Positions 3,162 through 21,069 of a DNA stretch of 21,069 bases are shown in pieces (positions within the stretch are counted from its first letter, which is position 1; every line of letters begins with the position of its first letter). Under the pieces are notes generated by a model that did not search any database, was not told the DNA's origin, and saw only the letters and a program-made list of their open reading frames with translations. The translations under genes were made by a program, and so were the position numbers. The stretch is from a virus (taxonomy: Duplodnaviria > Heunggongvirae > Uroviricota > Caudoviricetes): IMG/VR virus record IMGVR_UViG_2630968342_000014, one strand, 5' to 3'.

Positions 3162-3923
3162 TCACTCTCCTTTGATGCCAATGTTTACAGCCTTGCAAGC
3201 CTCTTTGAGTACCCAGTCAACAGCGTCTTTCCATGCTCCGGTTTCGACTGGCGGATTTTCACGCTTAACCTGTTCATAGAAGCGCACTGCTTTAACCAGT
3301 CCTTCCGGTACTACTGGCGATGGCTGTTTAGCTTCTAAATCAGCAATTCTGTCAACCACGGCATCGACAGCATCAGAAAAGCCGAACCAGTTACTCCACT
3401 CCGGCCTATCCCCGGTTGCTGCAAAGTACATATCAGCTAAAGCAGACTCAGCATGGTCACGCTCATTAATGAGTTGCTCTTCGCTTTTCTCCAGTTCAGC
3501 AATGCGCTTACTCCCATCCGAGATAACACCTTCGTAATACTCACGCTGCTCGTTGAGTTTTGATTTTTCTGCCTCAAGCTCAACGCGCAGCTTCCCTACC
3601 GTTAGCGAAATTTCCTCGTTCTCCTGGTCGCGGCGTTTGATGTATTGCTGGTTCCTTTCCCGTTCATCCAGTAGTGCCAGCACGGTAGCCGGGTTAGCCT
3701 CTGCTATGAATTCAGCGTTTGCATAAGCCTGAGCATCTGTTTCAATCAGGCAGTTAATATGACATTCCGCAATCACGCCACCGGGTTCTCCTTTCCATTT
3801 TTGGCAAACAAAAACTCCTGTTAAATTGCCGTGCTGGTTAACAGATGTATGCCCTACGATGTAGCTTCCTTTAGTTGCTTTCTCTGCCTTTTCACGCAGT
3901 ACCTGATAGTTAATGTTGCTCAC
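3162..3923 (-). CDS. Ead/Ea22-like protein
   Basis: 253-aa ORF. GTG start at 3923 with AAGGAGG Shine-Dalgarno 6 nt upstream. Central coiled-coil-like acidic region (ELEAEKSKLNEQREYYEGV...) and overall architecture resemble Ea22-family early-left proteins of lambdoid phages; from memory. Confidence 0.6.
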   Translation of the reverse strand: MSNINYQVLREKAEKATKGSYIVGHTSVNQHGNLTGVFVCQKWKGEPGGVIAECHINCLIETDAQAYANAEFIAEANPATVLALLDERERNQQYIKRRDQENEEISLTVGKLRVELEAEKSKLNEQREYYEGVISDGSKRIAELEKSEEQLINERDHAESALADMYFAATGDRPEWSNWFGFSDAVDAVVDRIADLEAKQPSPVVPEGLVKAVRFYEQVKRENPPVETGAWKDAVDWVLKEACKAVNIGIKGE

Positions 3924-7094: not shown

Positions 7095-7529
7095 ATGTCC
7101 GGTAATATCTACACGTTGTACAAATCCCACTGTGAAAATGTTGGAAAGTATCGGGGCATTGAAATCAGTGGGATAGTGTCATCAGTCGAAATAAGCAAAG
7201 TGGAATCAAGGGCAACATTACTTACTCTTCTGGATCTTGTCTTACATGAGCACCGGAAGAAATTCGGCACTCCCTATAATCAGTTGAATGGGAAAAAGGC
7301 TCTGGTTCACCTTATTCTGATGAAGCATCACTGGATGCCAAAACAGATTAATGAGATGAAATTTGATGAACTTCTTCTTTCAATTCAGGATGAACTCACA
7401 CTTGATAAAATAAGCGTAACCGCCCAGAAATTTTTAGATTATCGAGACTGGAGATCACAAATTCATCACTTTGATGATTTTGACGAAAATGAATGGGATC
7501 CTAATTTGTCTGCACAATATCTAAAGTAA
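7095..7529 (+). CDS. Hypothetical accessory protein (144 aa), no recognisable domain
   Basis: ATG at 7095 with AAAAGGAAAAG Shine-Dalgarno. Visibly more AT-rich than flanking phage genes. Opposite orientation to the surrounding early-left genes; two 18-19-bp direct repeats lie just upstream and a plus-strand intrinsic terminator lies downstream. Confidence 0.55.
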   Translation: MSGNIYTLYKSHCENVGKYRGIEISGIVSSVEISKVESRATLLTLLDLVLHEHRKKFGTPYNQLNGKKALVHLILMKHHWMPKQINEMKFDELLLSIQDELTLDKISVTAQKFLDYRDWRSQIHHFDDFDENEWDPNLSAQYLK

Positions 7530-7765
7530 CATCCTGTGATAAAACCGTGATTTCCTGATCCAGTTTTTTTAAGGAGTCTATTGTTTCCTGTCGATAAGAC
7601 AGCACTTCACGAAGCTGGTTTATAGCTGCCAGCTTCTTTGTCATCCACTCATAAATTTACTCATCTGTGTAGCTAGGCGCGACGATTTTGGGTTCTGTTT
7701 TGTGCATTTCACACCTCCTCAAGTTATCAGTTACTTGTTGATGGGGACCAGATTGTTAAAGAGCT

Positions 7766-7789
7766 AAGCGTCCTGTAGGGCGCTTTTTT
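7766..7789 (+). terminator. Intrinsic terminator downstream of the 144-aa gene
   Basis: AAGCGTCC-TGTA-GGGCGCTT followed by TTTTTTG: 8-bp stem including one G-U pair, tetraloop, T-run. Oriented for plus-strand transcripts only. Confidence 0.5.
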
Positions 7790-7874
7790 GTTGCTAACGA
7801 ATCATCCTGGACTTCATATGCCCCAGGCGGCTACTTCGTGGGTGTCCTGCCTGTTCGTTGTCTTAACACCTTTA

Positions 7875-7915
7875 AGTTGTAATTTAGTTGTGGTTTTGAA
7901 TGTTGTCAACAACTT
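7875..7915 (-). promoter_or_regulatory. PL-like leftward promoter overlapped by OL-like operator motifs
   Basis: On the minus strand: TTGACA (complement of 7904-7909), 17-bp spacer, TAAATT (complement of 7881-7886). Flanked and overlapped by the operator motifs found between cI and cro (ACAACTTTATG at 7909-7919 and 9562-9572; AGTTGTGG at 7886-7893 and 9595-9602). Confidence 0.5.
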
Positions 7916-7972
7916 TATGTGGTTTGAACGAGTAGCCAAGGAGTGCAAGGATTATCAAAAAAAGGAGGTTGT

Positions 7973-8863
7973 ATGGAAGACGCGCTTTACGCTTTTAATT
8001 ACACACAGAACCGGGACAAGTTATTTGCTAACTTGATTAGCATCATTGATGGAATCATTGCAGATGGAGTTGTCCGTGAAGAGGAGGTTCTTTACTTAGA
8101 TACATGGTTACTTGAAGCAAAGCAGATTATCAATAATGGAGTTATAAAAAGTCTATCTGCTCGGGTGTCGGATATTCTTGCGGATGGAATAATCACATCA
8201 GAAGAACGTGATGACCTTAAAAATAGCCTTCTCCAAATACAGAGGGAAATTCTTGATATCCCTGAAATTGATTTTTACTCCAAGGATGTAGATGTCCATT
8301 TACTTAATGGACTATGTAAAGGATTAATTGCTGATCGGAACTTAACTCAAGAAGAAATAAGATATCTTAATTGGTGGCTTGAGCAAAATGGAGCTTTGAA
8401 GAACAACTACCCAGGAAAAAAACTTTATGCACTTGTAAAGGAAATTCTTAAAGATGGTGTTATTACTGAAGATGAGAGTTTAACTCTACATAAGGCATTA
8501 GTAGACTTCACAGGATGTGACTTGGAAAGTGGGGTGGTGGATGGTTTGGCGACCAGGCTGCCTATTGATGTAGGGGCTTCGATAGAGTTAGAGGGTAAAA
8601 CCTATTGTCTTACAGGCACTTTTGTTGCAGGAAAGAGAGCCGTAGTTGAAAATTTGATTAAAAATGCTGGTGGGAACATCAGTAGTGGAATTACTCAAAA
8701 GTTGGATTTTTTAGTAATTGGGACGCTTTCCTCCCGTGATTGGAAATTCTCTAGTCACGGAAGGAAGATCGAAAAGGCTATATCTTATAGGGATGATAAT
8801 GGTGCAAAACTTAAAATTATTTCTGAAGAAATGCTTTTCGATGCATTACCAAGTTCGCGATGA
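7973..8863 (+). CDS. BRCT-domain protein with four N-terminal ~40-aa helical repeats (accessory gene)
   Basis: The track ORF starts at GTG 7943, but the ATG at 7973 has an AAAGGAGG Shine-Dalgarno. C-terminus (GKTYCLTGTFVAGKRAVVENLIKNAGGNISSGITQKLDFLVIGT...KLKIISEEMLFDAL) has the pattern of a BRCT domain like the C-terminus of NAD-dependent DNA ligase. N-terminal half carries four repeats of the form L-x-x-ILADG-x-IT-x-EE-x-x-L. AT-rich. The 3' end overlaps the cI 3' end. Confidence 0.7.
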   Translation: MEDALYAFNYTQNRDKLFANLISIIDGIIADGVVREEEVLYLDTWLLEAKQIINNGVIKSLSARVSDILADGIITSEERDDLKNSLLQIQREILDIPEIDFYSKDVDVHLLNGLCKGLIADRNLTQEEIRYLNWWLEQNGALKNNYPGKKLYALVKEILKDGVITEDESLTLHKALVDFTGCDLESGVVDGLATRLPIDVGASIELEGKTYCLTGTFVAGKRAVVENLIKNAGGNISSGITQKLDFLVIGTLSSRDWKFSSHGRKIEKAISYRDDNGAKLKIISEEMLFDALPSSR

Positions 8864-9532
8864 CCAGAATACCCTACCTATAACATGAATTCTGGCTCGT
8901 CTATCTTCAAAGGTGAGTATTTCATCTGGGTACTCATCTTTGTTGAAGCTTCTAAGAATCAAGCCACCGTCAGGTAAGTTGATAAGTATTTTAACCCTTA
9001 GCAATACACCATCTCGTACGGCATAAAGATCGCCATCACGAATAGGAACGGTTTGAGAAATATCAACGGCAACAAGATCTCCATTATTGAGAACCGGTAA
9101 TAAACTGTTCCCCCATATTTGTACGATCTTGGCATTAGATGCACATACGCCAGATTTTCTCAAATCTGCTCTTCTTAACGGAAACCAGTCAATAGCTGAT
9201 TCAACTATTTCAGCCAGACATCCGTTACCTGCCGATAACTCGACATCTAAAACAGGAATGTTTACGAAAATATCGGGGTCTAATGCGGTGCTTTCTGCTT
9301 CTTTTACAACAAGATCAGGTATGGATGCGTTGTCTTCAATACCAAGTTGTAACCACTTTTGTGATACACCTAAAACTTTTGCAATTTCTTTAATTTTGCG
9401 CGGTTGTAGAGTTTCGCCATTCTCTATTTTGGCTACAGATTGTTGTGAAAGTCCAATTTTTTCAGCTAGTTGAGCTTGGCTCATGCCAGCTTTCTCTCTA
9501 CCTATCTTTAATCGTTCTGCCAGTGTTTTCAC
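8846..9532 (-). CDS. cI: cI-like prophage repressor (HTH_XRE N-terminus, S24 LexA-like autopeptidase C-terminus)
   Basis: N-terminal XRE-type HTH (LAERLKIGREKAGMSQAQLAEKIGLSQQSVAKIENGE). Probable Ala-Gly cleavage site (ELSAGNG). Catalytic Ser (WGNSLLP) and Lys (LLRVKIL) in the C-terminal domain. GTG start at 9532 with AGAGGGA Shine-Dalgarno. Divergent from a Cro-like gene. Confidence 0.9.
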   Translation of the reverse strand: MKTLAERLKIGREKAGMSQAQLAEKIGLSQQSVAKIENGETLQPRKIKEIAKVLGVSQKWLQLGIEDNASIPDLVVKEAESTALDPDIFVNIPVLDVELSAGNGCLAEIVESAIDWFPLRRADLRKSGVCASNAKIVQIWGNSLLPVLNNGDLVAVDISQTVPIRDGDLYAVRDGVLLRVKILINLPDGGLILRSFNKDEYPDEILTFEDRRARIHVIGRVFWSSRTW

Positions 9533-10496: not shown

Positions 10497-10641
10497 ATAG
10501 TTTAACGGCAAATAACCGTTTGTCGCAACAGCTGGTGGTCAGCGTCGCTGAACACCTGTTGTTACGGCATGAATGCAGATTACCAAATCACCTGGCTGTA
10601 AGTAACCACAGAGAACTTTACCTGACTGTGGGGGGCGAGTT

Positions 10642-13668: not shown

Positions 13669-14321
13669 TGAGTAATAAATATTGCCAGGCGCTGGCGGAA
13701 CTGCGGAACAAACCAGCCCATGAACTGAAGGAAGCGGGCGATCAGTGGCGCACGCCGGACAACATTTTCTGGGGAATTAACACTCTGTTTGGCCCGTTTG
13801 TTCTGGATCTGTTTACTGACGGTGATAACGCCAAATGTGCTGCGTATTACACGGCGGAAGACAACGCGTTGGCGCATGACTGGTCAGAACGCCTTGCGGA
13901 GCTTAAAGGTGCTGCCTTTGGTAATCCCCCATACAGCCGCGCCAGTCAGCATGAGGGGCAATACATCACCGGCATGCGTTACATCATGAAGCATGCCAGT
14001 GCCATGCGTGATAAAGGCGGGCGCTATGTTTTCCTGATCAAAGCTGCCACCAGCGAAGTGTGGTGGCCGGAAGATGCAGATCATATTGCTTTTATTCGCG
14101 GGCGTATTGGTTTTGAACTGCCTGCCTGGTTTATCCCGAAAGACGAAAAGCAGGTGCCAACAGGTGCTTTCTTCGCTGGTGCTATTGCTGTTTTCGACAA
14201 GACCTGGAAGGGAGCGGCAATCAGCTACATCGGGCGCGATGAACTTGAGGCATGTGGTGAGGCATTTCTGGCGCAGGTTCGCCAGCAGGCGGAAAAACTG
14301 GTCAGGGAGATGGCGGCATGA
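13668..14321 (+). CDS. Phage DNA N6-adenine methyltransferase (Dam-type)
   Basis: The ATG at 13668 overlaps the upstream stop (TAATG). Contains the N6-MTase catalytic tetrapeptide NPPY (AFGNPPYSR). The track ORF starts further upstream at 13635. Confidence 0.8.
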   Translation: MSNKYCQALAELRNKPAHELKEAGDQWRTPDNIFWGINTLFGPFVLDLFTDGDNAKCAAYYTAEDNALAHDWSERLAELKGAAFGNPPYSRASQHEGQYITGMRYIMKHASAMRDKGGRYVFLIKAATSEVWWPEDADHIAFIRGRIGFELPAWFIPKDEKQVPTGAFFAGAIAVFDKTWKGAAISYIGRDELEACGEAFLAQVRQQAEKLVREMAA

Positions 14322-14644
14322 CGACATTAACTCAATGCCAGCAGCAGGTGCTGGATATGCTGATTTCTTATCAGAAAGAACGTGGCTTCCCGCCAACCAA
14401 TCAGGAGGTGGCAACCATGCTGGGATACCGTTCGGTGAATGCAGCGGTGGAGCATCTTCGCGCACTGGAGAAAAAAGGTGTCATCACGATAAAGCGTGGC
14501 GTGGCCCGGGGTATCACTCTTCATACCGCGGTGAAGGACGACGACAGCGAGGCGGTCGGGATTATCCGCGCCCTGCTTGCCGGTGAGGCAAACGCCAGGC
14601 TGCGTGCAGCCCACTGGTTACATGAGAGGGGCCTGAAAGTATGA
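14318..14644 (+). CDS. LexA-like protein consisting only of the N-terminal DNA-binding domain (no S24 peptidase domain)
   Basis: 108 aa; LTQCQQQVLDMLISYQKERGFPPTNQEVATMLGYRSVNAAVEHLRALEKKGVITIKRGVARGITL aligns residue by residue with the E. coli LexA N-terminal winged-HTH as I recall it (LTARQQEVFDLI...[36 protein letters not shown]...SRGIRL). The ORF ends after the linker, so the autocleavage domain is absent. Confidence 0.75.
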   Translation: MTTLTQCQQQVLDMLISYQKERGFPPTNQEVATMLGYRSVNAAVEHLRALEKKGVITIKRGVARGITLHTAVKDDDSEAVGIIRALLAGEANARLRAAHWLHERGLKV

Positions 14645-15036
14645 AGCTAATACTGCCTTTTCCGCCCAGCGTGAACACGTACTGGCGACACCCCAACAAA
14701 GGGGCGTTTGCTGGTAAGAGCCTGATAAGCGCGGCGGGGCGAAAATTCCAGAGCGCGGCGTGTGCAGCAATAGTTGAGCAGTTACGTCGTCTGCCGAAAC
14801 CAACGTCGGCACCTGCTTCAGTGGAGATCGTGTTGTTTCCTCCGGATAACCGGATCCGCGATCTGGACAACTATAACAAGGCGCTGTTTGACGCCCTGAC
14901 CCACGCGGGTGTGTGGGAAGACGACAGCCAGGTGAAAAGAATGCTGGTGGAGTGGGGACCGGTTATCCCGGAAGGGAAGGTCGAGATCACTATCAGTAAG
15001 TACGAAAAAGCGAGTTGCAAATTAGCAACTCGGTAA
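14641..15036 (+). CDS. rusA: RusA-type Holliday junction resolvase
   Basis: 131 aa; the N-terminal LPFPPSVNTYWRH and central RDLDNYNKALFDALTHAGVWEDDSQV match RusA signatures (compare E. coli RusA LPWPPSNNRYY...[26 protein letters not shown]). ATGA overlap with the upstream gene. Confidence 0.85.
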   Translation: MKLILPFPPSVNTYWRHPNKGAFAGKSLISAAGRKFQSAACAAIVEQLRRLPKPTSAPASVEIVLFPPDNRIRDLDNYNKALFDALTHAGVWEDDSQVKRMLVEWGPVIPEGKVEITISKYEKASCKLATR

Positions 15037-15081: not shown

Positions 15082-15101
15082 TACTGTATTTATGAACAGT
15101 G
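15082..15101. promoter_or_regulatory. Consensus LexA (SOS) box upstream of the KilA-N gene
   Basis: TACTGTATTTATGAACAGTG read directly: CTGT (15084-15087), 8-nt AT-rich spacer, ACAG (15096-15099), matching the CTGT-N8-ACAG SOS-box consensus. Lies about 100 bp upstream of the ATG at 15199. Confidence 0.7.
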
Positions 15102-15198
15102 TATCCTTGATAACTATTAAAAATCGCAGTAAGTTCATCCTGCATCAACGAAAAGGGAGTGCAGTCCCGCTCGTGGATAAAAATTTGTGGAGAAACCA

Positions 15199-16014
15199 AT
15201 GAATCAGTTGCTTGTAATTGATGGCGTTTCTGTGCGCCAGTACTTCGAATCTAACTACTGTCTTAACGACCTTCAGAAAGCTGCTCTTCTTGCCGCTGGT
15301 GAGAATCGCTCCTCCCGTTCGCTGGAAGTTCACGAGTTTATGCGTCGTCCTGAAACGAAGGCTCTTGTGGAATTATTGGAAGAAGAAACTACGGGAGATT
15401 CCCGTAGTATTCCTGTCATCACCATTCAGGGGCGCAATGGTGGGACGTATGTCTGTAAAGAGCTGGTCTATGCATATGCAATGTGGATCAGCCCGGCATT
15501 CAGCTTAAAAGTGATACGTACTTTTGATGCGCTTCATAATTCATCACCAGAAGAAACCACATCCGACAAAATTAAATCCGGGGTCATTCTGCTTGAATCA
15601 GCAGCAAAGACTCTAAATCTGTCAAACTCCTCGAAACTTGGTGCATACCAGAAATTATCAAAGGTAGCTGGTCTTCCTGAACTTATGCCGATCTATGCCA
15701 TTGATGCACCTGCTGATGCGCCAGATGGTTCAAGCCGCCCTACGCTGTCGCTGAGTGCACTGCTGAAGCAGTATGGTATCCGCCTGACGGCTAATCAGGC
15801 ATATCACCAGATGGCGAAGCTGGGGATCGTTGAACAACGCGAACGATACAGCCGTACCGCGATTAACAACATCAAAAAATTCTGGTCGCTGACAGCGAAA
15901 GGCTGCATGTTCGGCAAGAACATCACCAGTCCTGCAAATCCGCGCGAGACGCAGCCGCATTTCTTCGAATCCCGATTCCCTGAGCTGTTAAAGCTGCTCG
16001 ATACCGTTCATTGA
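15199..16014 (+). CDS. KilA-N domain protein (antirepressor-like)
   Basis: The ATG at 15199 has a GGAGAAACC Shine-Dalgarno (the track starts at GTG 15187). The N-terminal region (IDGVSVRQYF...GTYVCKELVYAYAMWISPAFSLKVIRTFD) fits the KilA-N DNA-binding domain pattern. Confidence 0.7.
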   Translation: MNQLLVIDGVSVRQYFESNYCLNDLQKAALLAAGENRSSRSLEVHEFMRRPETKALVELLEEETTGDSRSIPVITIQGRNGGTYVCKELVYAYAMWISPAFSLKVIRTFDALHNSSPEETTSDKIKSGVILLESAAKTLNLSNSSKLGAYQKLSKVAGLPELMPIYAIDAPADAPDGSSRPTLSLSALLKQYGIRLTANQAYHQMAKLGIVEQRERYSRTAINNIKKFWSLTAKGCMFGKNITSPANPRETQPHFFESRFPELLKLLDTVH

Positions 16015-16015
16015 G

Positions 16016-17011
16016 GTGACCGTGAGAGCACTACTGACCCCTGAAATCGCCCCGCGTATGGGGATCGTATTGTTCAGGCCAGGTTCAGAGCTGATGCCCC
16101 TGTTTATGCAGGGGCGTGTCCTGCTGGAGCCTGAGCCGGAACGTTATTCATCTTTTGCCAGTGGTGCCGTTCCGGCAGCATCACAACCGCTGGCGGATGA
16201 TCCTGCCGTTCGGGCCGTGTTCCGCCATGAGGCGGTGATCCGTCGTGCTGGTGGCGTGGAATGCCTTGAGAGCTGGTTACTTCGTGAAAAGGGCTGTCAG
16301 TGGCCTCATTCCGACTGGCACAGCGAGAACATGACCACAATGCGGCACGCGCCAGGCGCAATCCGTCTGTGCTGGCACTGTGACAATCTTCTCCGTGACC
16401 AGTTCACGGAACGGCTGGAAGCAATGGCAACGGATAACTGTGCCCGCTGGGTGTTGTCTGTTGTGCGCCGTGATCTTGGTTTTGATGACAGTCACGTTGT
16501 GACAATGCCGGAACTGTGCTGGTGGCTGATTCGTAATGACCTGGCGGATGCCTTACCGGAAAGTGCAGCCCGTAAGGCACTGAGATTACCGAAGCCTGTT
16601 GTGCCGTCTGTCACCCGGGAAAGTGACCTTGTGCCTTCGGTTCCTGCCACCAGCATCATCCAGGATAAAGCGAAAAAGGTGCTGGCGCTGAAAGTGGATC
16701 CGGAGTCGCCGGAGTCTTTTATGTTACGCCCCAAACGTCGCCGCTGGGTTAATGAAAAGTACACGCGCTGGGTTAAGACGCAGCCGTGTGCATGTTGTGG
16801 AAAGCCTGCTGATGATCCCCACCATCTGATAGGCCACGGTCAGGGGGGAATGGGTACAAAAGCGCATGATCTCTTTGTGTTGCCTTTGTGCAGAAAGCAT
16901 CACGACGAGCTGCATGCGGATACCGTGGCATTTGAAGAGAAGTATGGCTCCCAGCTGGAGTTGATATTTCGTTTTATCGATCGTGCGCTGGCAATTGGTG
17001 TGCTGGCCTGA
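16016..17011 (+). CDS. DUF968-like protein with C-terminal HNH-like Cys/His zinc-binding motif
   Basis: C-terminus CACCGKPADDPHHLIGHGQGGMGTKAHDLFVLPLCRKHHDELH resembles the DUF968/HNH-like motif of Nin-region proteins in lambdoid prophages. Start uncertain: GTG at 16016 or 16022 after a GAGGTGA Shine-Dalgarno. Confidence 0.6.
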   Translation: MTVRALLTPEIAPRMGIVLFRPGSELMPLFMQGRVLLEPEPERYSSFASGAVPAASQPLADDPAVRAVFRHEAVIRRAGGVECLESWLLREKGCQWPHSDWHSENMTTMRHAPGAIRLCWHCDNLLRDQFTERLEAMATDNCARWVLSVVRRDLGFDDSHVVTMPELCWWLIRNDLADALPESAARKALRLPKPVVPSVTRESDLVPSVPATSIIQDKAKKVLALKVDPESPESFMLRPKRRRWVNEKYTRWVKTQPCACCGKPADDPHHLIGHGQGGMGTKAHDLFVLPLCRKHHDELHADTVAFEEKYGSQLELIFRFIDRALAIGVLA

Positions 17012-17028
17012 TTTTGTGGAGAAAGTTG

Positions 17029-17385
17029 ATGCGTGATATGTATGAAGTAATGGATCGTTGGGGAGCTTGGGCTGCTTCAGACAATAGCGGAGTGGACTGG
17101 CAGCCGATAGCGGCTGGTTTCAAGGGACTTTTACCTCATGGCAAAAAGTCACGGATTCAGTGTGATGATGACGAAGGCATCATGATAGACAGTTGTGTGG
17201 CTCGGTTGAGAAGGTATAAACCAGAGGAATATGAGCTCATCATCGCCCACTTTGTTATCGGTATCTCATTACGTACTATTGCGAAGAAGAGAAAATGCTC
17301 TGATGGCACAATTAGGAAGGAACTGCAAACTGCAATGGGGTTTGTTGACGGCTGTTTAGCAATGTTAGCTTATAGTATGGCATAA
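17029..17385 (+). CDS. Q: Late-gene antiterminator Q (small Q family)
   Basis: The ATG at 17029 has a GGAGAAAG Shine-Dalgarno (the track starts at TTG 17014). Motifs MDRWGAWAA, IAAGFKG, QCDDDEG and KCSDGTIRKELQ match the small Q-antiterminator family of phage 21/Rac-type prophages as I recall them. Confidence 0.8.
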   Translation: MRDMYEVMDRWGAWAASDNSGVDWQPIAAGFKGLLPHGKKSRIQCDDDEGIMIDSCVARLRRYKPEEYELIIAHFVIGISLRTIAKKRKCSDGTIRKELQTAMGFVDGCLAMLAYSMA

Positions 17386-18579
17386 AAAATAAAATAGATT
17401 TACTGCCGATTTTTCAAAAAAGACTGGGAACTGTTTATATCCAACGTAAATAAGGCCTCCATAAAACATGGCTGATGCGAGATATTTAACAGTTCTCATC
17501 CTTTTTTTAGCTTTATCAATCAAACCTGTAATGCTACTCTTAATACTATCTGCATTATCTTTGATTTCTTTATTTTCTTCAAACTTTAAATACTTATCGA
17601 AAGCGGACTCCACTCGAGAACGTAAGTTGTCGAATGTTTCATTGAATATCTCAATAGAAATGTAATTGACTTTTTTTATCATCCAAAGTCCTGCGATAAT
17701 CAATATTGCTTCGGTTGTTTCATTAGCCTTCACTAAGCCACCAGCAGCTATTAATGCACCGGGAATAGTCAATGCTTTTGTCTGATTAGATGATATGAAT
17801 TCGTTAATTTTACTCGTGAACTCAAGATTTTTCTCATCGAGTTCGTTAAGAATTTTATTTACAGAAAACCTCTTTGTGTAAATCTCATATAGTTCATCAT
17901 ATTTTTTCCTGACGAGTTCAGTAGAGTTAAGCAAGTCAAAGAAATTGAACGTACCATTTGCTTTAAATACTTCGTTTATGGCTGAGCGTATAACGAGCTT
18001 GCGCTCGCTTTTGTGTAAATCATTGATTTTTATTGTGTCGAGAAGCTCCTTTATAATTTCATATTTAAGAGACGAGTTCGATAAGCGATTAATCTCGCTA
18101 TATTGTAAAAAATGCGTGAGTTCGACTGTATAACTTTTGTCTTCATTGGTGAAAAATAAGACAGAGCAGTCACTGTTATGATGATCAGCAATTAATGAAA
18201 GGATATCTTTCCACATAAAGAAAATATGGATTTTTTCGATGCTTTCATTCTTAGAAGTAGGGAGTATTAACGGCGTTCCGATGATATAATTTTTCGGAAG
18301 AGCGTTTTGGGTGTTTACTCTAGACCAAAAAGACTCAACATTCTCATAAATTATAGCGTCATCCCAAGATGAAGCTTGGCGATCTAGCCAAATTTCATTA
18401 TTTTCGATGCAGGTTGTTGCCTTTTTATAACCTATAGATTGTAACAGTCTAATTATTTCAGAACTATTTACAATAACAATGCTTTCTTCAAGACTTATGA
18501 CAGTGTAGTAGCCCTCAACTCTGCTTGAGGCTCCGTTAATAATCTGCGCTAATCTTGATAAGTCATCAGCAATTGTCAT
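17365..18579 (-). CDS. Membrane protein (404 aa): about 265-aa soluble N-terminal domain plus C-terminal transmembrane segments; second gene of the AT-rich cassette
   Basis: The ATG at 18579 lies 2 nt after the upstream stop (coupled). Hydrophobic stretches ALTIPGALIAAGGLV, AILIIAGLWMI and YLASAMFYGGLIYVGY near the C-terminus. AT-rich. The 3' end overlaps the 3' end of Q by 21 bp (convergent). Confidence 0.65.
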   Translation of the reverse strand: MTIADDLSRLAQIINGASSRVEGYYTVISLEESIVIVNSSEIIRLLQSIGYKKATTCIENNEIWLDRQASSWDDAIIYENVESFWSRVNTQNALPKNYIIGTPLILPTSKNESIEKIHIFFMWKDILSLIADHHNSDCSVLFFTNEDKSYTVELTHFLQYSEINRLSNSSLKYEIIKELLDTIKINDLHKSERKLVIRSAINEVFKANGTFNFFDLLNSTELVRKKYDELYEIYTKRFSVNKILNELDEKNLEFTSKINEFISSNQTKALTIPGALIAAGGLVKANETTEAILIIAGLWMIKKVNYISIEIFNETFDNLRSRVESAFDKYLKFEENKEIKDNADSIKSSITGLIDKAKKRMRTVKYLASAMFYGGLIYVGYKQFPVFFEKSAVNLFYFLCHTIS

Positions 18580-18581
18580 TA

Positions 18582-19757
18582 TTAGCTGTCTCTATATCTT
18601 TTGAGTTCATCATAATTTGCCTGACTCAATTTTATCACAATTTCGCATTTGTTGTCAGTGAGAATTACAGGCTTATTTGACTTTTCGTCTCCAATAGCTC
18701 CACGCATTATTTTCAACTTAAAATTATTGTCGTTATCTGCCACTTCAATTGTAAGCGCGCTTTCAGCTGCTTTAGGAGTTGGTTCAAATTGAGGGTCAAT
18801 CTGGAAACCATTAAGATTAACAAAATCGACAAACGTTCCCTTACATTTGTGTGAATCAGTCAGGCATGAGTCAATTATTTTTGAAATATCCTCTATCTTA
18901 ACGGACTTATTTCCGTGTTTATCTTTTGATTTTTTTTCCAGTAAGGATTTAACTTCATTGTCAATAGTATCACGCAGTACACGACCGAGTGAGTTTTTAC
19001 TAGCAAAAATATCTATAGCACTGAATAATTGCTGAATGCTTCTTTTATTGTCCGAATCATGTCGGCAACCTAATGAGTCTTTGAAAAAATCGCTTTTAGA
19101 TTTACCTTGCAAGAAATGTACATATGAGTCACCCTTGTTTTCTGGATAACTGGCTTCGAATAAAGTTAAATCGAACATCGCAGCCTGCCGTAAGGCATCG
19201 GTATTAATTGGATTTAATCTTGTTGGGGTCAACTTATCCGAATCAAAGTCATAGGCGCTTTGTTTATCAACCATTACGATTAGAAGTTTCCCCAAATCCT
19301 CTGGTTCGGTAGACTTATAGTGGATGAAAACAACGCTCCCCCCCTGAAGTTGGGCAACTCTCGATTCGTTATTAGCATTATGTTTAAGCTTCTCTATTAT
19401 AGCTCTAGATAAATCAATGAATTCATTATTTTTATTAATGTATTTTTTTAGGATCGTAGGAATGGATGAAGGGTTGTGATCTGAGTCTAGGAAGTTATGA
19501 AATTTGTTTTTTCGGCTAAATTTTTTCTCAATTCTGGTTATGAATTCAGATGTGACTTCATTTTTTAGATCCCAAACTTCACCTAATCGATAATCAAATG
19601 CTCTTGAATCATTTTTTTCAAGATTTGCTGTTACAGCACCAATAGGAAAGTACGATTGTTTGCCCAGCACTACAACATGAGGCGTGGCACCGCATTTATC
19701 GCAAGCTACAGTTGGGTCGTCAAGAACATTGCCACATTCTAAACAAGTTATATCCAT
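18582..19757 (-). CDS. Zinc-ribbon plus NdpA/YejK-like (nucleoid-associated protein family) domain protein; first gene of the AT-rich cassette
   Basis: ATG at 19757. N-terminal C-x2-C-x12-C-x2-C zinc ribbon (CLECGNVLDDPTVACDKCG). Central region GGSVVFIHY...LLIVMVD...YVHFLQGKSKSDFFKDSLG parallels the E. coli YejK/NdpA blocks GGFVLFCHY...YLTFLKG...DFFMDFLG, recalled from memory. Strongly AT-rich with A/T-ending codons. Confidence 0.65.
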   Translation of the reverse strand: MDITCLECGNVLDDPTVACDKCGATPHVVVLGKQSYFPIGAVTANLEKNDSRAFDYRLGEVWDLKNEVTSEFITRIEKKFSRKNKFHNFLDSDHNPSSIPTILKKYINKNNEFIDLSRAIIEKLKHNANNESRVAQLQGGSVVFIHYKSTEPEDLGKLLIVMVDKQSAYDFDSDKLTPTRLNPINTDALRQAAMFDLTLFEASYPENKGDSYVHFLQGKSKSDFFKDSLGCRHDSDNKRSIQQLFSAIDIFASKNSLGRVLRDTIDNEVKSLLEKKSKDKHGNKSVKIEDISKIIDSCLTDSHKCKGTFVDFVNLNGFQIDPQFEPTPKAAESALTIEVADNDNNFKLKIMRGAIGDEKSNKPVILTDNKCEIVIKLSQANYDELKRYRDS

Positions 19758-20355: not shown

Positions 20356-21069
20356 ATGGCTGTTGTCTGTTCAGTTATCATGGTTTGCTCCCCAATTAAT
20401 ATTTTTCTTGAAAAGGATACGTTGTCACTTAAGCCAGGCTCAGTTGTTCTGGCCACCAAATGCATCAGGGAGCTTTTCCTTATGCATTATGGCAAAGTTA
20501 AAATTGTCGATATAAGCGAATCCGTCGTAAGTCAATATCTGGAAAGTCAGCATAAGCTGACGAGGACTCGTCTGACTGACATTCCGCTTTACCTGTTGCT
20601 GGAACCCAACAATCCTGCGTTGGCTGCGGCTTTAATTACCAGCCAGGGATTTTCCGGAGAGGCCACGGATATGTTTCTTATGATGGCCTGCCTGTCTCTG
20701 TTTGAAACAGATGAACGGATGTCATTGTTTTTAAGTGGATGTTTATCCAGCATAAGTGCCAAAGTCAGGGCGATAATTCAGACAGATATATCAGCAAGCT
20801 GGACGCTTGGTGCGATTGCTCTACAGTTGCATATGAGTGAGAGTTTGTTAAAGACAAAACTGAAAAATGAAGGGGGCATGTTCAGTCGCTTGTTGCTGGA
20901 AGAGCGGATGCGTGTTGCTGTAAATATGTTATGTTCCCGGCATGGATATGGACAGGCTATAGCAGAAAAATGCGGTTATTCAAGCAGGTCCTACTTTATT
21001 TCTGTATTTCACCGCTATTATGGCTTCCCGCCAGACAGATATGTATCCAGGCAAGGGCTTGATTATTGA
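20356..21069 (+). CDS. AraC-family transcriptional regulator, EnvY/AppY-like
   Basis: C-terminal double-HTH: RAIIQTDISASWTLGAIALQLHMSESLLKTKLKNEGGMFSRLLLEERMRVAVNMLCSRHGYGQAIAEKCGYSSRSYFISVFHRYYGFPP closely parallels EnvY/AppY as recalled (IIQSDIQHYW...LLKKKLKNE...CGYSSTSYFISVFK). N-terminus MAVVCSVIMVC parallels AppY MDYVCSVVFIC. Stop codon at the window end. Confidence 0.8.
   Translation: MAVVCSVIMVCSPINIFLEKDTLSLKPGSVVLATKCIRELFLMHYGKVKIVDISESVVSQYLESQHKLTRTRLTDIPLYLLLEPNNPALAAALITSQGFSGEATDMFLMMACLSLFETDERMSLFLSGCLSSISAKVRAIIQTDISASWTLGAIALQLHMSESLLKTKLKNEGGMFSRLLLEERMRVAVNMLCSRHGYGQAIAEKCGYSSRSYFISVFHRYYGFPPDRYVSRQGLDY

Follow-up and report, generated by a model that had tools for sequence, protein, structure and literature searches.

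A LexA-type box abutting a conserved putative promoter upstream of kilA-N, DUF968 and Q genes in a lambda-like prophage

Gene order of the prophage

The window, by which we mean the whole stretch of DNA analysed (21,069 nucleotides; IMG/VR record IMGVR_UViG_2630968342_000014), is a lambda-like prophage of the SfIV/PhiR49_1 type. Its gene order is cI (minus strand), cro-like, cII-like, Ash and Rha, an O-like replication protein, PerC-like, Dam, a LexA DNA-binding-domain (DBD) protein, RusA, a LexA box with a promoter, KilA-N, DUF968 and Q. The genes that matter here are as follows.

8846–9532, minus strand: cI, 434-like repressor; Pfam HTH_3 and Peptidase_S24 (model positions 2–116 of 116)
14318–14644, plus strand: LexA paralog with the DNA-binding domain only (108 aa); Pfam LexA_DNA_bind, E 2.9e-19, residues 1–65; no S24 domain
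14641–15036, plus strand: rusA; Pfam RusA; last gene before the intergenic region
15199–16014, plus strand: kilA-N (271 aa); N-terminal KilA-N/APSES DNA-binding domain and a conserved, uncharacterised C-terminal domain
16016–17011, plus strand: DUF968/HNH-type gene, 1 nt after kilA-N; Pfam DUF968, E 4.6e-81
17014–17385, plus strand: Q late antiterminator, 2 nt after the DUF968 gene; Pfam Phage_antitermQ, E 3.2e-47

The box lies in the 162-nt intergenic region between rusA and kilA-N, the sole sizeable gap of the early-right operon. Box and promoter are thus placed between the replication genes and Q, as in the Gifsy-type module.

The cI repressor looks cleavable and would be the other DNA-damage input of this prophage. 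Its N terminus resembles the 434 repressor (E 4e-13), and A-G, GNS (G-N-S) and VK motifs can be read in its translation. The original prediction had taken cI to be autocleavable, which the full S24 domain in Pfam and the visible cleavage-site and Ser/Lys motifs support.

Two sets of cargo genes were also noted. After Q (17365–19757, minus strand) there are a 404-aa protein without a family match and a 391-aa NA37 (YejK-like nucleoid-associated) protein, and next to cI (7095–8863) there are a 306-aa BRCT-domain protein and a 144-aa protein. PADLOC, applied to KilA-N, DUF968 and the post-Q cargo, returned no informative defence-system match and one weak match (PDC-S48).

The 3' end of rusA (15009–15035, AGCGAGTTGCAAATTAGCAACTCGGTA) matches at 24 of 27 positions a segment of a related locus (L002, 3559–3585) that lies inside a kilA-N gene of the other type (codons SELQICNSV), the two sequences having been compared by eye. 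It appears that the box–promoter–kilA-N cassette was joined on behind the truncated remains of an older kilA-N, leaving the rusA end as a recombination scar. We rejected the palindrome at 15011–15032 as a minus-strand small RNA or terminator, because it scores as a terminator, and has a T-run, on the minus strand only, no minus-strand promoter is visible and a recombination scar explains it better. It was also rejected as a Gifsy-like upstream terminator because the plus strand has no U-run.

A strong LexA box upstream of kilA-N

15082–15101, strand not assigned: LexA (SOS) box TACTGTATTTATGAACAGTG, a perfect CTGT-N8-ACAG palindrome with an AT-rich centre

The box contains an exact CTGT-N8-ACAG core (CTGTATTTATGAACAG), and 16 of its 20 positions agree with TACTG(TA)5CAGTA, the 20-bp consensus of the E. 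coli SOS operator (PMC12527982). For scoring, we used a provisional symmetric LexA weight matrix made from 26 E. coli LexA sites. By this matrix the box scores 22.0 bits, which falls in the upper half of the training sites (range 12.8 to 26.8), ranks first in the window ahead of a runner-up at 15.9 bits and is higher than any score in 200 shuffled windows (maximum 18.96). Its heterology index (HI) is approximately 5.1, compared with 1.0 to 9.3 among the training sites. Within the 150-nt upstream region, the box has a P value of about 0.002 against dinucleotide shuffles. The CTGT-N8-ACAG pattern occurs twice in the 21-kb window; the second match, at 10596, sits within the Ash/Rha open reading frame (ORF) and scores poorly (HI ~12.9).

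The shuffles exclude a chance match and confirm the box as a genuine LexA-type site. We retain a non-functional chance match only as one part of a joint alternative, discussed below, that we consider unlikely. The originally predicted near-perfect LexA operator about 100 bp upstream of kilA-N is therefore upheld: TACTGTATTTATGAACAGTG is found at 15082–15101 with an exact core and the top score in the window, and it ends 97 nt before the ATG at 15199. The second-best LexA-like site, AAGTGGATGTTTATCCAGCA at 20733–20752 (15.9 bits), is near the 95th percentile of the shuffle maxima, sits in the ORF of an AraC-family regulator (20356–21069) and is probably due to chance.

The box sequence is identical in SfIV-type phages and in five aligned E. 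coli/phage copies, with a final A in SfIV that brings it nearer to the consensus. Of 5426 complete E. coli genomes, 187 match a 391-nt query that covers the box region and the first part of kilA-N; in 144 of these 187 carriers the region is at least 99% identical. The carriers include O104:H4 and some O157:H7, O103:H2 and O111:H8 strains, and the module is also present in the Shigella serotype-converting phage SfIV. Exact copies of the box in IMG/VR nearly all belong to the same module; three copies fall within coding sequences unrelated to it, and two others are LexA sites of unrelated origin. Two carriers have insertion sequences nearby. In E. coli GB089 (L005), IS421 interrupts rusA and leaves the box, promoter and kilA-N intact. 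In CFSAN004176 (L006), IS600 lies immediately upstream of kilA-N; the match starts at query position 207, and the box and promoter are absent.

A conserved putative promoter abuts the box

Footprinting with the E. coli and Shigella copies was uninformative, as these are at least 96% identical over the intergenic region, and other genera were used instead. Using the KilA-N protein, we fetched 50 loci of other genera, together with seven closer relatives. Two architectures are found: kilA-N either follows rusA after about 16 to 40 nt without a promoter (Stx2a_1447, SfII, mEp460, Proteus and others) or is separated from it by a gap of about 90 to 160 nt. Ten long-gap regions from different Enterobacteriaceae genera were aligned with MAFFT (alignment A3), without reference to the LexA weight matrix. 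The elements in the window are listed below.

15107–15112, plus strand: predicted −35 element TTGATA, 5 nt downstream of the box; aligns with a conserved GGTTGAAA block (10 Enterobacteriaceae intergenic regions)
15130–15135, plus strand: predicted −10 element TAAGTT, after a 17-nt spacer; TAnnnT in one column set in 10 of 10 aligned sequences
15148–15174, plus strand: leader hairpin ACGA-aaa-GGGA-GTGCAG-TCCC-gc-TCGT, loop GTGCAG at 15159–15164; between the presumed transcription start and the ribosome-binding site
15189–15192, plus strand: Shine-Dalgarno GGAG, 6 nt upstream of the ATG; both alignments (A3 and A5) show an invariant GTGGAG block

Alignment A3 has its conserved blocks at fixed spacing, namely, a TG-N10-CAG palindrome, 5 nt, GGTTGAAA, 17 nt, TAAkGT, the leader hairpin, GTGGAG and the ATG. 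In 8 of the 10 aligned regions, a TTGnnn hexamer lies 17 nt upstream of the TAnnnT block. The window promoter is weak by consensus: its −10 element agrees at only three of six positions, and a scan for consensus promoters did not call it. Given this failure, we accept the promoter because it is conserved across relatives.

Transcription would start near 15142, which would put the centre of the box at about −51 and its span at about −41 to −60. The box thus ends 5 nt upstream of the conserved −35 element and abuts it without overlap, whereas the boxes of Erwinia and Pantoea overlap the −10 or the −35. Note that a centre near −51 would be atypical, as most LexA-repressed promoters have the box over the −10 or the start; repression from this position is our proposal.

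A covarying hairpin in the leader

Across 21 loci, the TGCAG of the hairpin loop is invariant and the stems covary, with 50 double-sided changes and with G-U pairs on the sense strand. The covariation score is 0.593 compared with 0.244 in shuffles, and none of 500 shuffles reached 0.593. A hairpin with the loop (G/U)UGCAG was found in most of the 50 loci of other genera (L007 to L056) and in L002 (~3376–3391). Phages that lack the promoter retain it as well, and there it extends over the stop codon of rusA. An equivalently placed hairpin occurs in Proteus, Morganella and Providencia, with UGUACGG, UAUACGG or AUGCGG as its loop. Rfam gave no match for the region or the hairpin. On its conservation pattern, the hairpin is probably an undescribed cis-regulatory RNA element tied to the kilA-N gene family.

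LexA-like boxes recur beside the promoter in other genera

LexA-like palindromes beside or over the equivalent promoter were found in prophages of at least 14 enterobacterial genera. We compared the best LexA score between −180 and −30 with dinucleotide shuffles in 29 long-gap loci, of which 21 were below P = 0.05 and 17 below P = 0.01. In Erwinia (L042), the sole promoter called by the scanner (TTGCCA-17-TATATT) has its box over the −10 and the start, and in Pantoea brenneri (L022) a promoter that the scanner also called has its −35 under the box. The Rahnella and Serratia boxes, from the printed sequences read by eye, cover a candidate −10; they stand only about 25 nt before the hairpin and so must overlap the core promoter. 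The placement of the box therefore varies by clade but is always promoter-proximal, which fits a repressor site; an activator site would not allow such variation.

Within the clade of the window, most left half-sites read GTG (GTGGAT) rather than CTG, and the window box is the sole perfect one. The clade boxes score 7.8 bits in Kluyvera, 9.3 in Kosakonia, 12.4 in Leclercia and 5.5 in Cedecea, and the weight matrix finds no LexA site in Citrobacter farmeri (best ~−0.7). The window box would then be the optimised extreme of a graded series. These weak or absent boxes suggest that strong LexA control may be a recent refinement specific to E. coli and Shigella and not an ancestral state.

Could the palindrome instead be the site of some other dimeric DNA-binding protein (for example, in KilA-N autoregulation), a chance match or an AT-rich UP-like element with LexA-like ends? 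The GTGGAT left half-site that prevails in the clade is off the LexA consensus, the close relative C. farmeri has lost the site, and KilA-N is itself a DNA-binding domain. Nevertheless, both half-sites in the window match the LexA consensus and beat every shuffle, the conserved columns are exactly the LexA core TG-N10-CAG, and the unrelated-looking promoters of Erwinia and Pantoea also have LexA-like boxes. We therefore regard this joint alternative as unlikely.

High-scoring boxes also arise by chance in coding DNA, one example being the beginning of an L011 methyltransferase gene. There, a perfect LexA-type box (TACTGTAAAAATAAACAGTG, ~7156) falls on codons 4 to 10 of a DNA methyltransferase gene downstream of kilA-N and DUF968. 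The same 20-mer is present at a similar offset in L026 (~6951), with close variants in L047 (~6460) and L055 (~7890). The L011 box could be a coding coincidence or a start-codon-proximal operator.

Three further prophages, which have no box at kilA-N, carry very strong LexA boxes about 3.4 to 3.7 kb upstream of that gene (L019 at 371–390, L016 at ~270 and L043 at ~647; for example, TACTGTTTTTATATACAGTA at 26.7 bits). The L019 box belongs to the immunity region and lies a short way 5' of the cro-like gene. Some relatives may thus place their LexA input elsewhere than at kilA-N.

Host LexA rather than the phage paralog is the better candidate binder

Two genes upstream of the kilA-N unit, the phage encodes its own LexA-like protein. 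Residues 2 to 70 of this paralog align to the N-terminal domain of E. coli LexA (E 6e-16). Like gp6 of phage GIL01, it consists of the LexA winged-helix domain with S24 absent. Its recognition-helix segment reads RSVNAAVEHLRAL versus RSPNAAEEHLKAL in LexA, at positions that we take to contact DNA in the LexA–DNA structure. A C-terminal helix (EAxxxIRALLAGExxAR..WL..RG) is conserved in the paralog and possibly serves as a dimerisation element. The widespread phage family to which it belongs, phrog_362, has members in SfII, in Stx2a and Stx2c phages, in mEp460 and in many prophages of enterobacteria, and the recognition helix differs between members. Such a protein could be a non-cleavable modulator of host SOS boxes.

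The box might accordingly be an operator of this phage protein, acting alone or in competition with host LexA. Being uncleavable, the paralog could re-close the promoter after induction, or it could activate from next to the −35, as gp6 does in GIL01. Its alignment to the LexA N-terminal domain, the closeness of its gene and the activator-like position of the site just upstream of the −35 all speak for such a role, and gp6, itself a truncated homologue of LexA, switches on a late promoter from −43.5 (PMC6182141). The distribution of the two elements argues otherwise. O157:H7 NE122 has the identical box module but no paralog, and the Pantoea, Rahnella, Serratia and Erwinia boxes have no paralog within the ~4 kb of upstream flank that was fetched. 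Conversely, Stx2a_1447, SfII and three further loci (L015, L016 and L019) carry the paralog and have neither box nor promoter. Furthermore, L008 and L025 share an identical box while their recognition helices differ, and the position of the box relative to the promoter shifts between clades. Genomic linkage of paralog and box, and covariation of helix and box, are both absent. Control of the box by the paralog is thus improbable in our view.

Host LexA is the sole factor common to all of the box loci, and we rate it the best candidate binder for this reason. A paralog at the same locus, which had been thought unusual, proves to be common and unlinked to the box, as each occurs without the other.

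The downstream unit and the antirepressor question

Pfam confirms the KilA-N domain of the gene downstream of the box, and in that search it is the sole match to the protein, ANT/KilAC (PF03374) being absent. A fold search likewise finds only the APSES DNA-binding domain, and PHROGs label the protein a transcriptional regulator. The DUF968 gene is its constant partner, following kilA-N in nearly all related loci. The family has been described as combining an Orf(NinB)-like DNA-binding domain with an HNH nuclease (PMC4118853). Most relatives that we examined carry a Q gene in the slot after DUF968, and these Q genes belong to different families.

Between 15199 and 17014 there are only weak terminator-like sites, and Q is probably the last gene of the unit. 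That the unit probably ends in Q had been overlooked; the Pfam-identified Q gene starts 2 nt after DUF968. Because the Orf-like/HNH DUF968 gene and Q follow KilA-N, we take the output of the promoter to be, in all likelihood, DNA-handling functions plus the late activator. One weak terminator-like hairpin (16987–17007, GCTGGCAATTGGTGTGCTGGC then CTGATTTTGT) is located at the end of the DUF968 gene, just before Q, and if functional it could limit how much transcription from the SOS promoter reaches Q.

It had been suggested that KilA-N is antirepressor-like. P1 KilA and P22 Ant share a C-terminal domain (Pfam ANT/KilAC), so some KilA-N proteins do occur in antirepressor-type architectures. In a scheme of the Gifsy/186 type, KilA-N would be an antirepressor under LexA control, inactivating cI or the repressors of other prophages in the same cell. 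This reading can draw on those architectures and on the layout, in which a LexA box and promoter stand between the replication genes and Q as in the Gifsy SOS locus. However, of the P22 Ant/P1 KilA architecture, the protein has the N-terminal KilA-N DNA-binding domain and lacks the C-terminal ANT/KilAC domain; the only fold found is the DNA-binding APSES fold. The Gifsy and 186 repressors are non-cleavable, whereas here cI looks cleavable, and the completeness of its S24 domain leaves no need for an antirepressor. Moreover, kilA-N is equally conserved in phages without promoter or box, where it is simply part of the pR operon, and its fixed partner is a recombination-type nuclease. The antirepressor label is not supported by this evidence, and we consider such a function very unlikely.

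DISCUSSION

We consider it probable, though well short of certain, that a host LexA operator controls an internal sigma-70 promoter (TTGATA, 17 nt, TAAGTT) in the nin-equivalent region of this prophage. In the lysogen, cI would shut pR and the region would otherwise be silent. LexA bound at about −41 to −60, abutting the −35 and covering the position of an UP element, would keep the promoter down. RecA-stimulated cleavage of LexA would then release a transcript starting with a 57-nt leader and its hairpin and continuing through kilA-N and the DUF968 Orf-like/HNH gene, probably to Q. We infer each of these steps from the arrangement of the locus, from LexA binding and repression at this position to the start site and the read-through to Q. 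The biological role would be a cI-independent SOS input to DNA-handling functions and the late-gene activator, alongside cI self-cleavage.

Two layers of DNA-damage control had been proposed for this prophage. Dual sensing remains plausible, given the S24 domain of cI, the strong LexA operator, the conserved abutting promoter and the recurrence of boxes; the antirepressor arm of the proposal finds no support.

A more elaborate scenario can be drawn. Q would be directly LexA-gated by the box, promoter and leader, and, with LexA cleaved faster than cI-type repressors, mild damage could prime late transcription, or set it off, ahead of the loss of immunity or without it. The non-cleavable paralog, made from pR only after cI falls, would bind again at the operator and at host SOS boxes, a timer by which the SOS regulon and rival LexA-gated elements are shut off, and the GUGCAG hairpin would act as a post-transcriptional check. 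We regard this scenario as a long shot. If Q were LexA-gated, lysis and cargo genes downstream of Q would be affected in prophages with the Stx-phage plan.

A LexA box on a prophage promoter is a well-established concept. In coliphage 186 (p95-tum), and in Fels-2, host LexA gates the promoter of an antirepressor; 186 is P2-like and its CI is non-cleavable. Both 186 and the model proposed here have a phage promoter that is gated by host LexA and yields a product with a part in induction, but Tum is small and unrelated to KilA-N.

The SOS locus of Gifsy-1, -2 and -3 is closest in logic, as these phages are lambdoid and have a LexA box with its own promoter between the replication genes and Q. 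Gifsy and the window would be alike in having a cI-independent, SOS-inducible unit in an otherwise silent early-right region. In Gifsy, the LexA box is upstream of the dinI-gfoA/gftA/gfhA operon, the repressors are not cleaved, and the operon codes for a homologue of DinI together with a small antirepressor (Lemire et al. 2011, PMC3121763). The window differs in that cI has an S24 domain and that the unit consists of KilA-N (271 aa), the Orf-like/HNH protein and Q, none of them small. No Pfam match to the DinI family was obtained among the 19 window ORFs scanned, which include kilA-N, DUF968 and Q. A further difference from Gifsy is that our scan found no rho-independent terminator before the box on the plus strand.

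GIL01, a Bacillus tectivirus, resembles the window in having a DNA-binding-domain-only LexA homologue in the phage and host LexA boxes on a promoter leading to late genes. There, gp6, which binds a non-LexA palindrome at −43.5, and LexA–gp7 control the late promoter P3 (Fornelos et al. 2018, PMC6182141). GIL01 differs in having no repressor of its own, and the window paralog differs in having no genomic linkage to the box. The E. coli recA, sulA and umuDC operators follow the same 20-bp consensus, and the score of the window box is in the range of strong sites, but the window box is upstream of the −35. In a Salmonella survey, the position of the box and the heterology index set the strength of control (PMC8072944), and LexA boxes on prophage promoters are now predicted genome-wide by PSOSP (2025). 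Our literature searches on KilA-N and LexA, SfIV, LexA-like phage proteins and DUF968 found no direct study or description of this module and no LexA-binding or expression measurements for it.

Should the promoter prove to be LexA-gated, a widespread prophage family would have a second, immunity-independent route from DNA damage to a late activator and a recombination-type nuclease. This would bear on how such prophages, and their Stx-phage-like relatives, respond to SOS-inducing antibiotics. The family would also offer a case of natural tuning of operator strength, with the same promoter accompanied by LexA-like sites of about 5 to 22 bits across genera.
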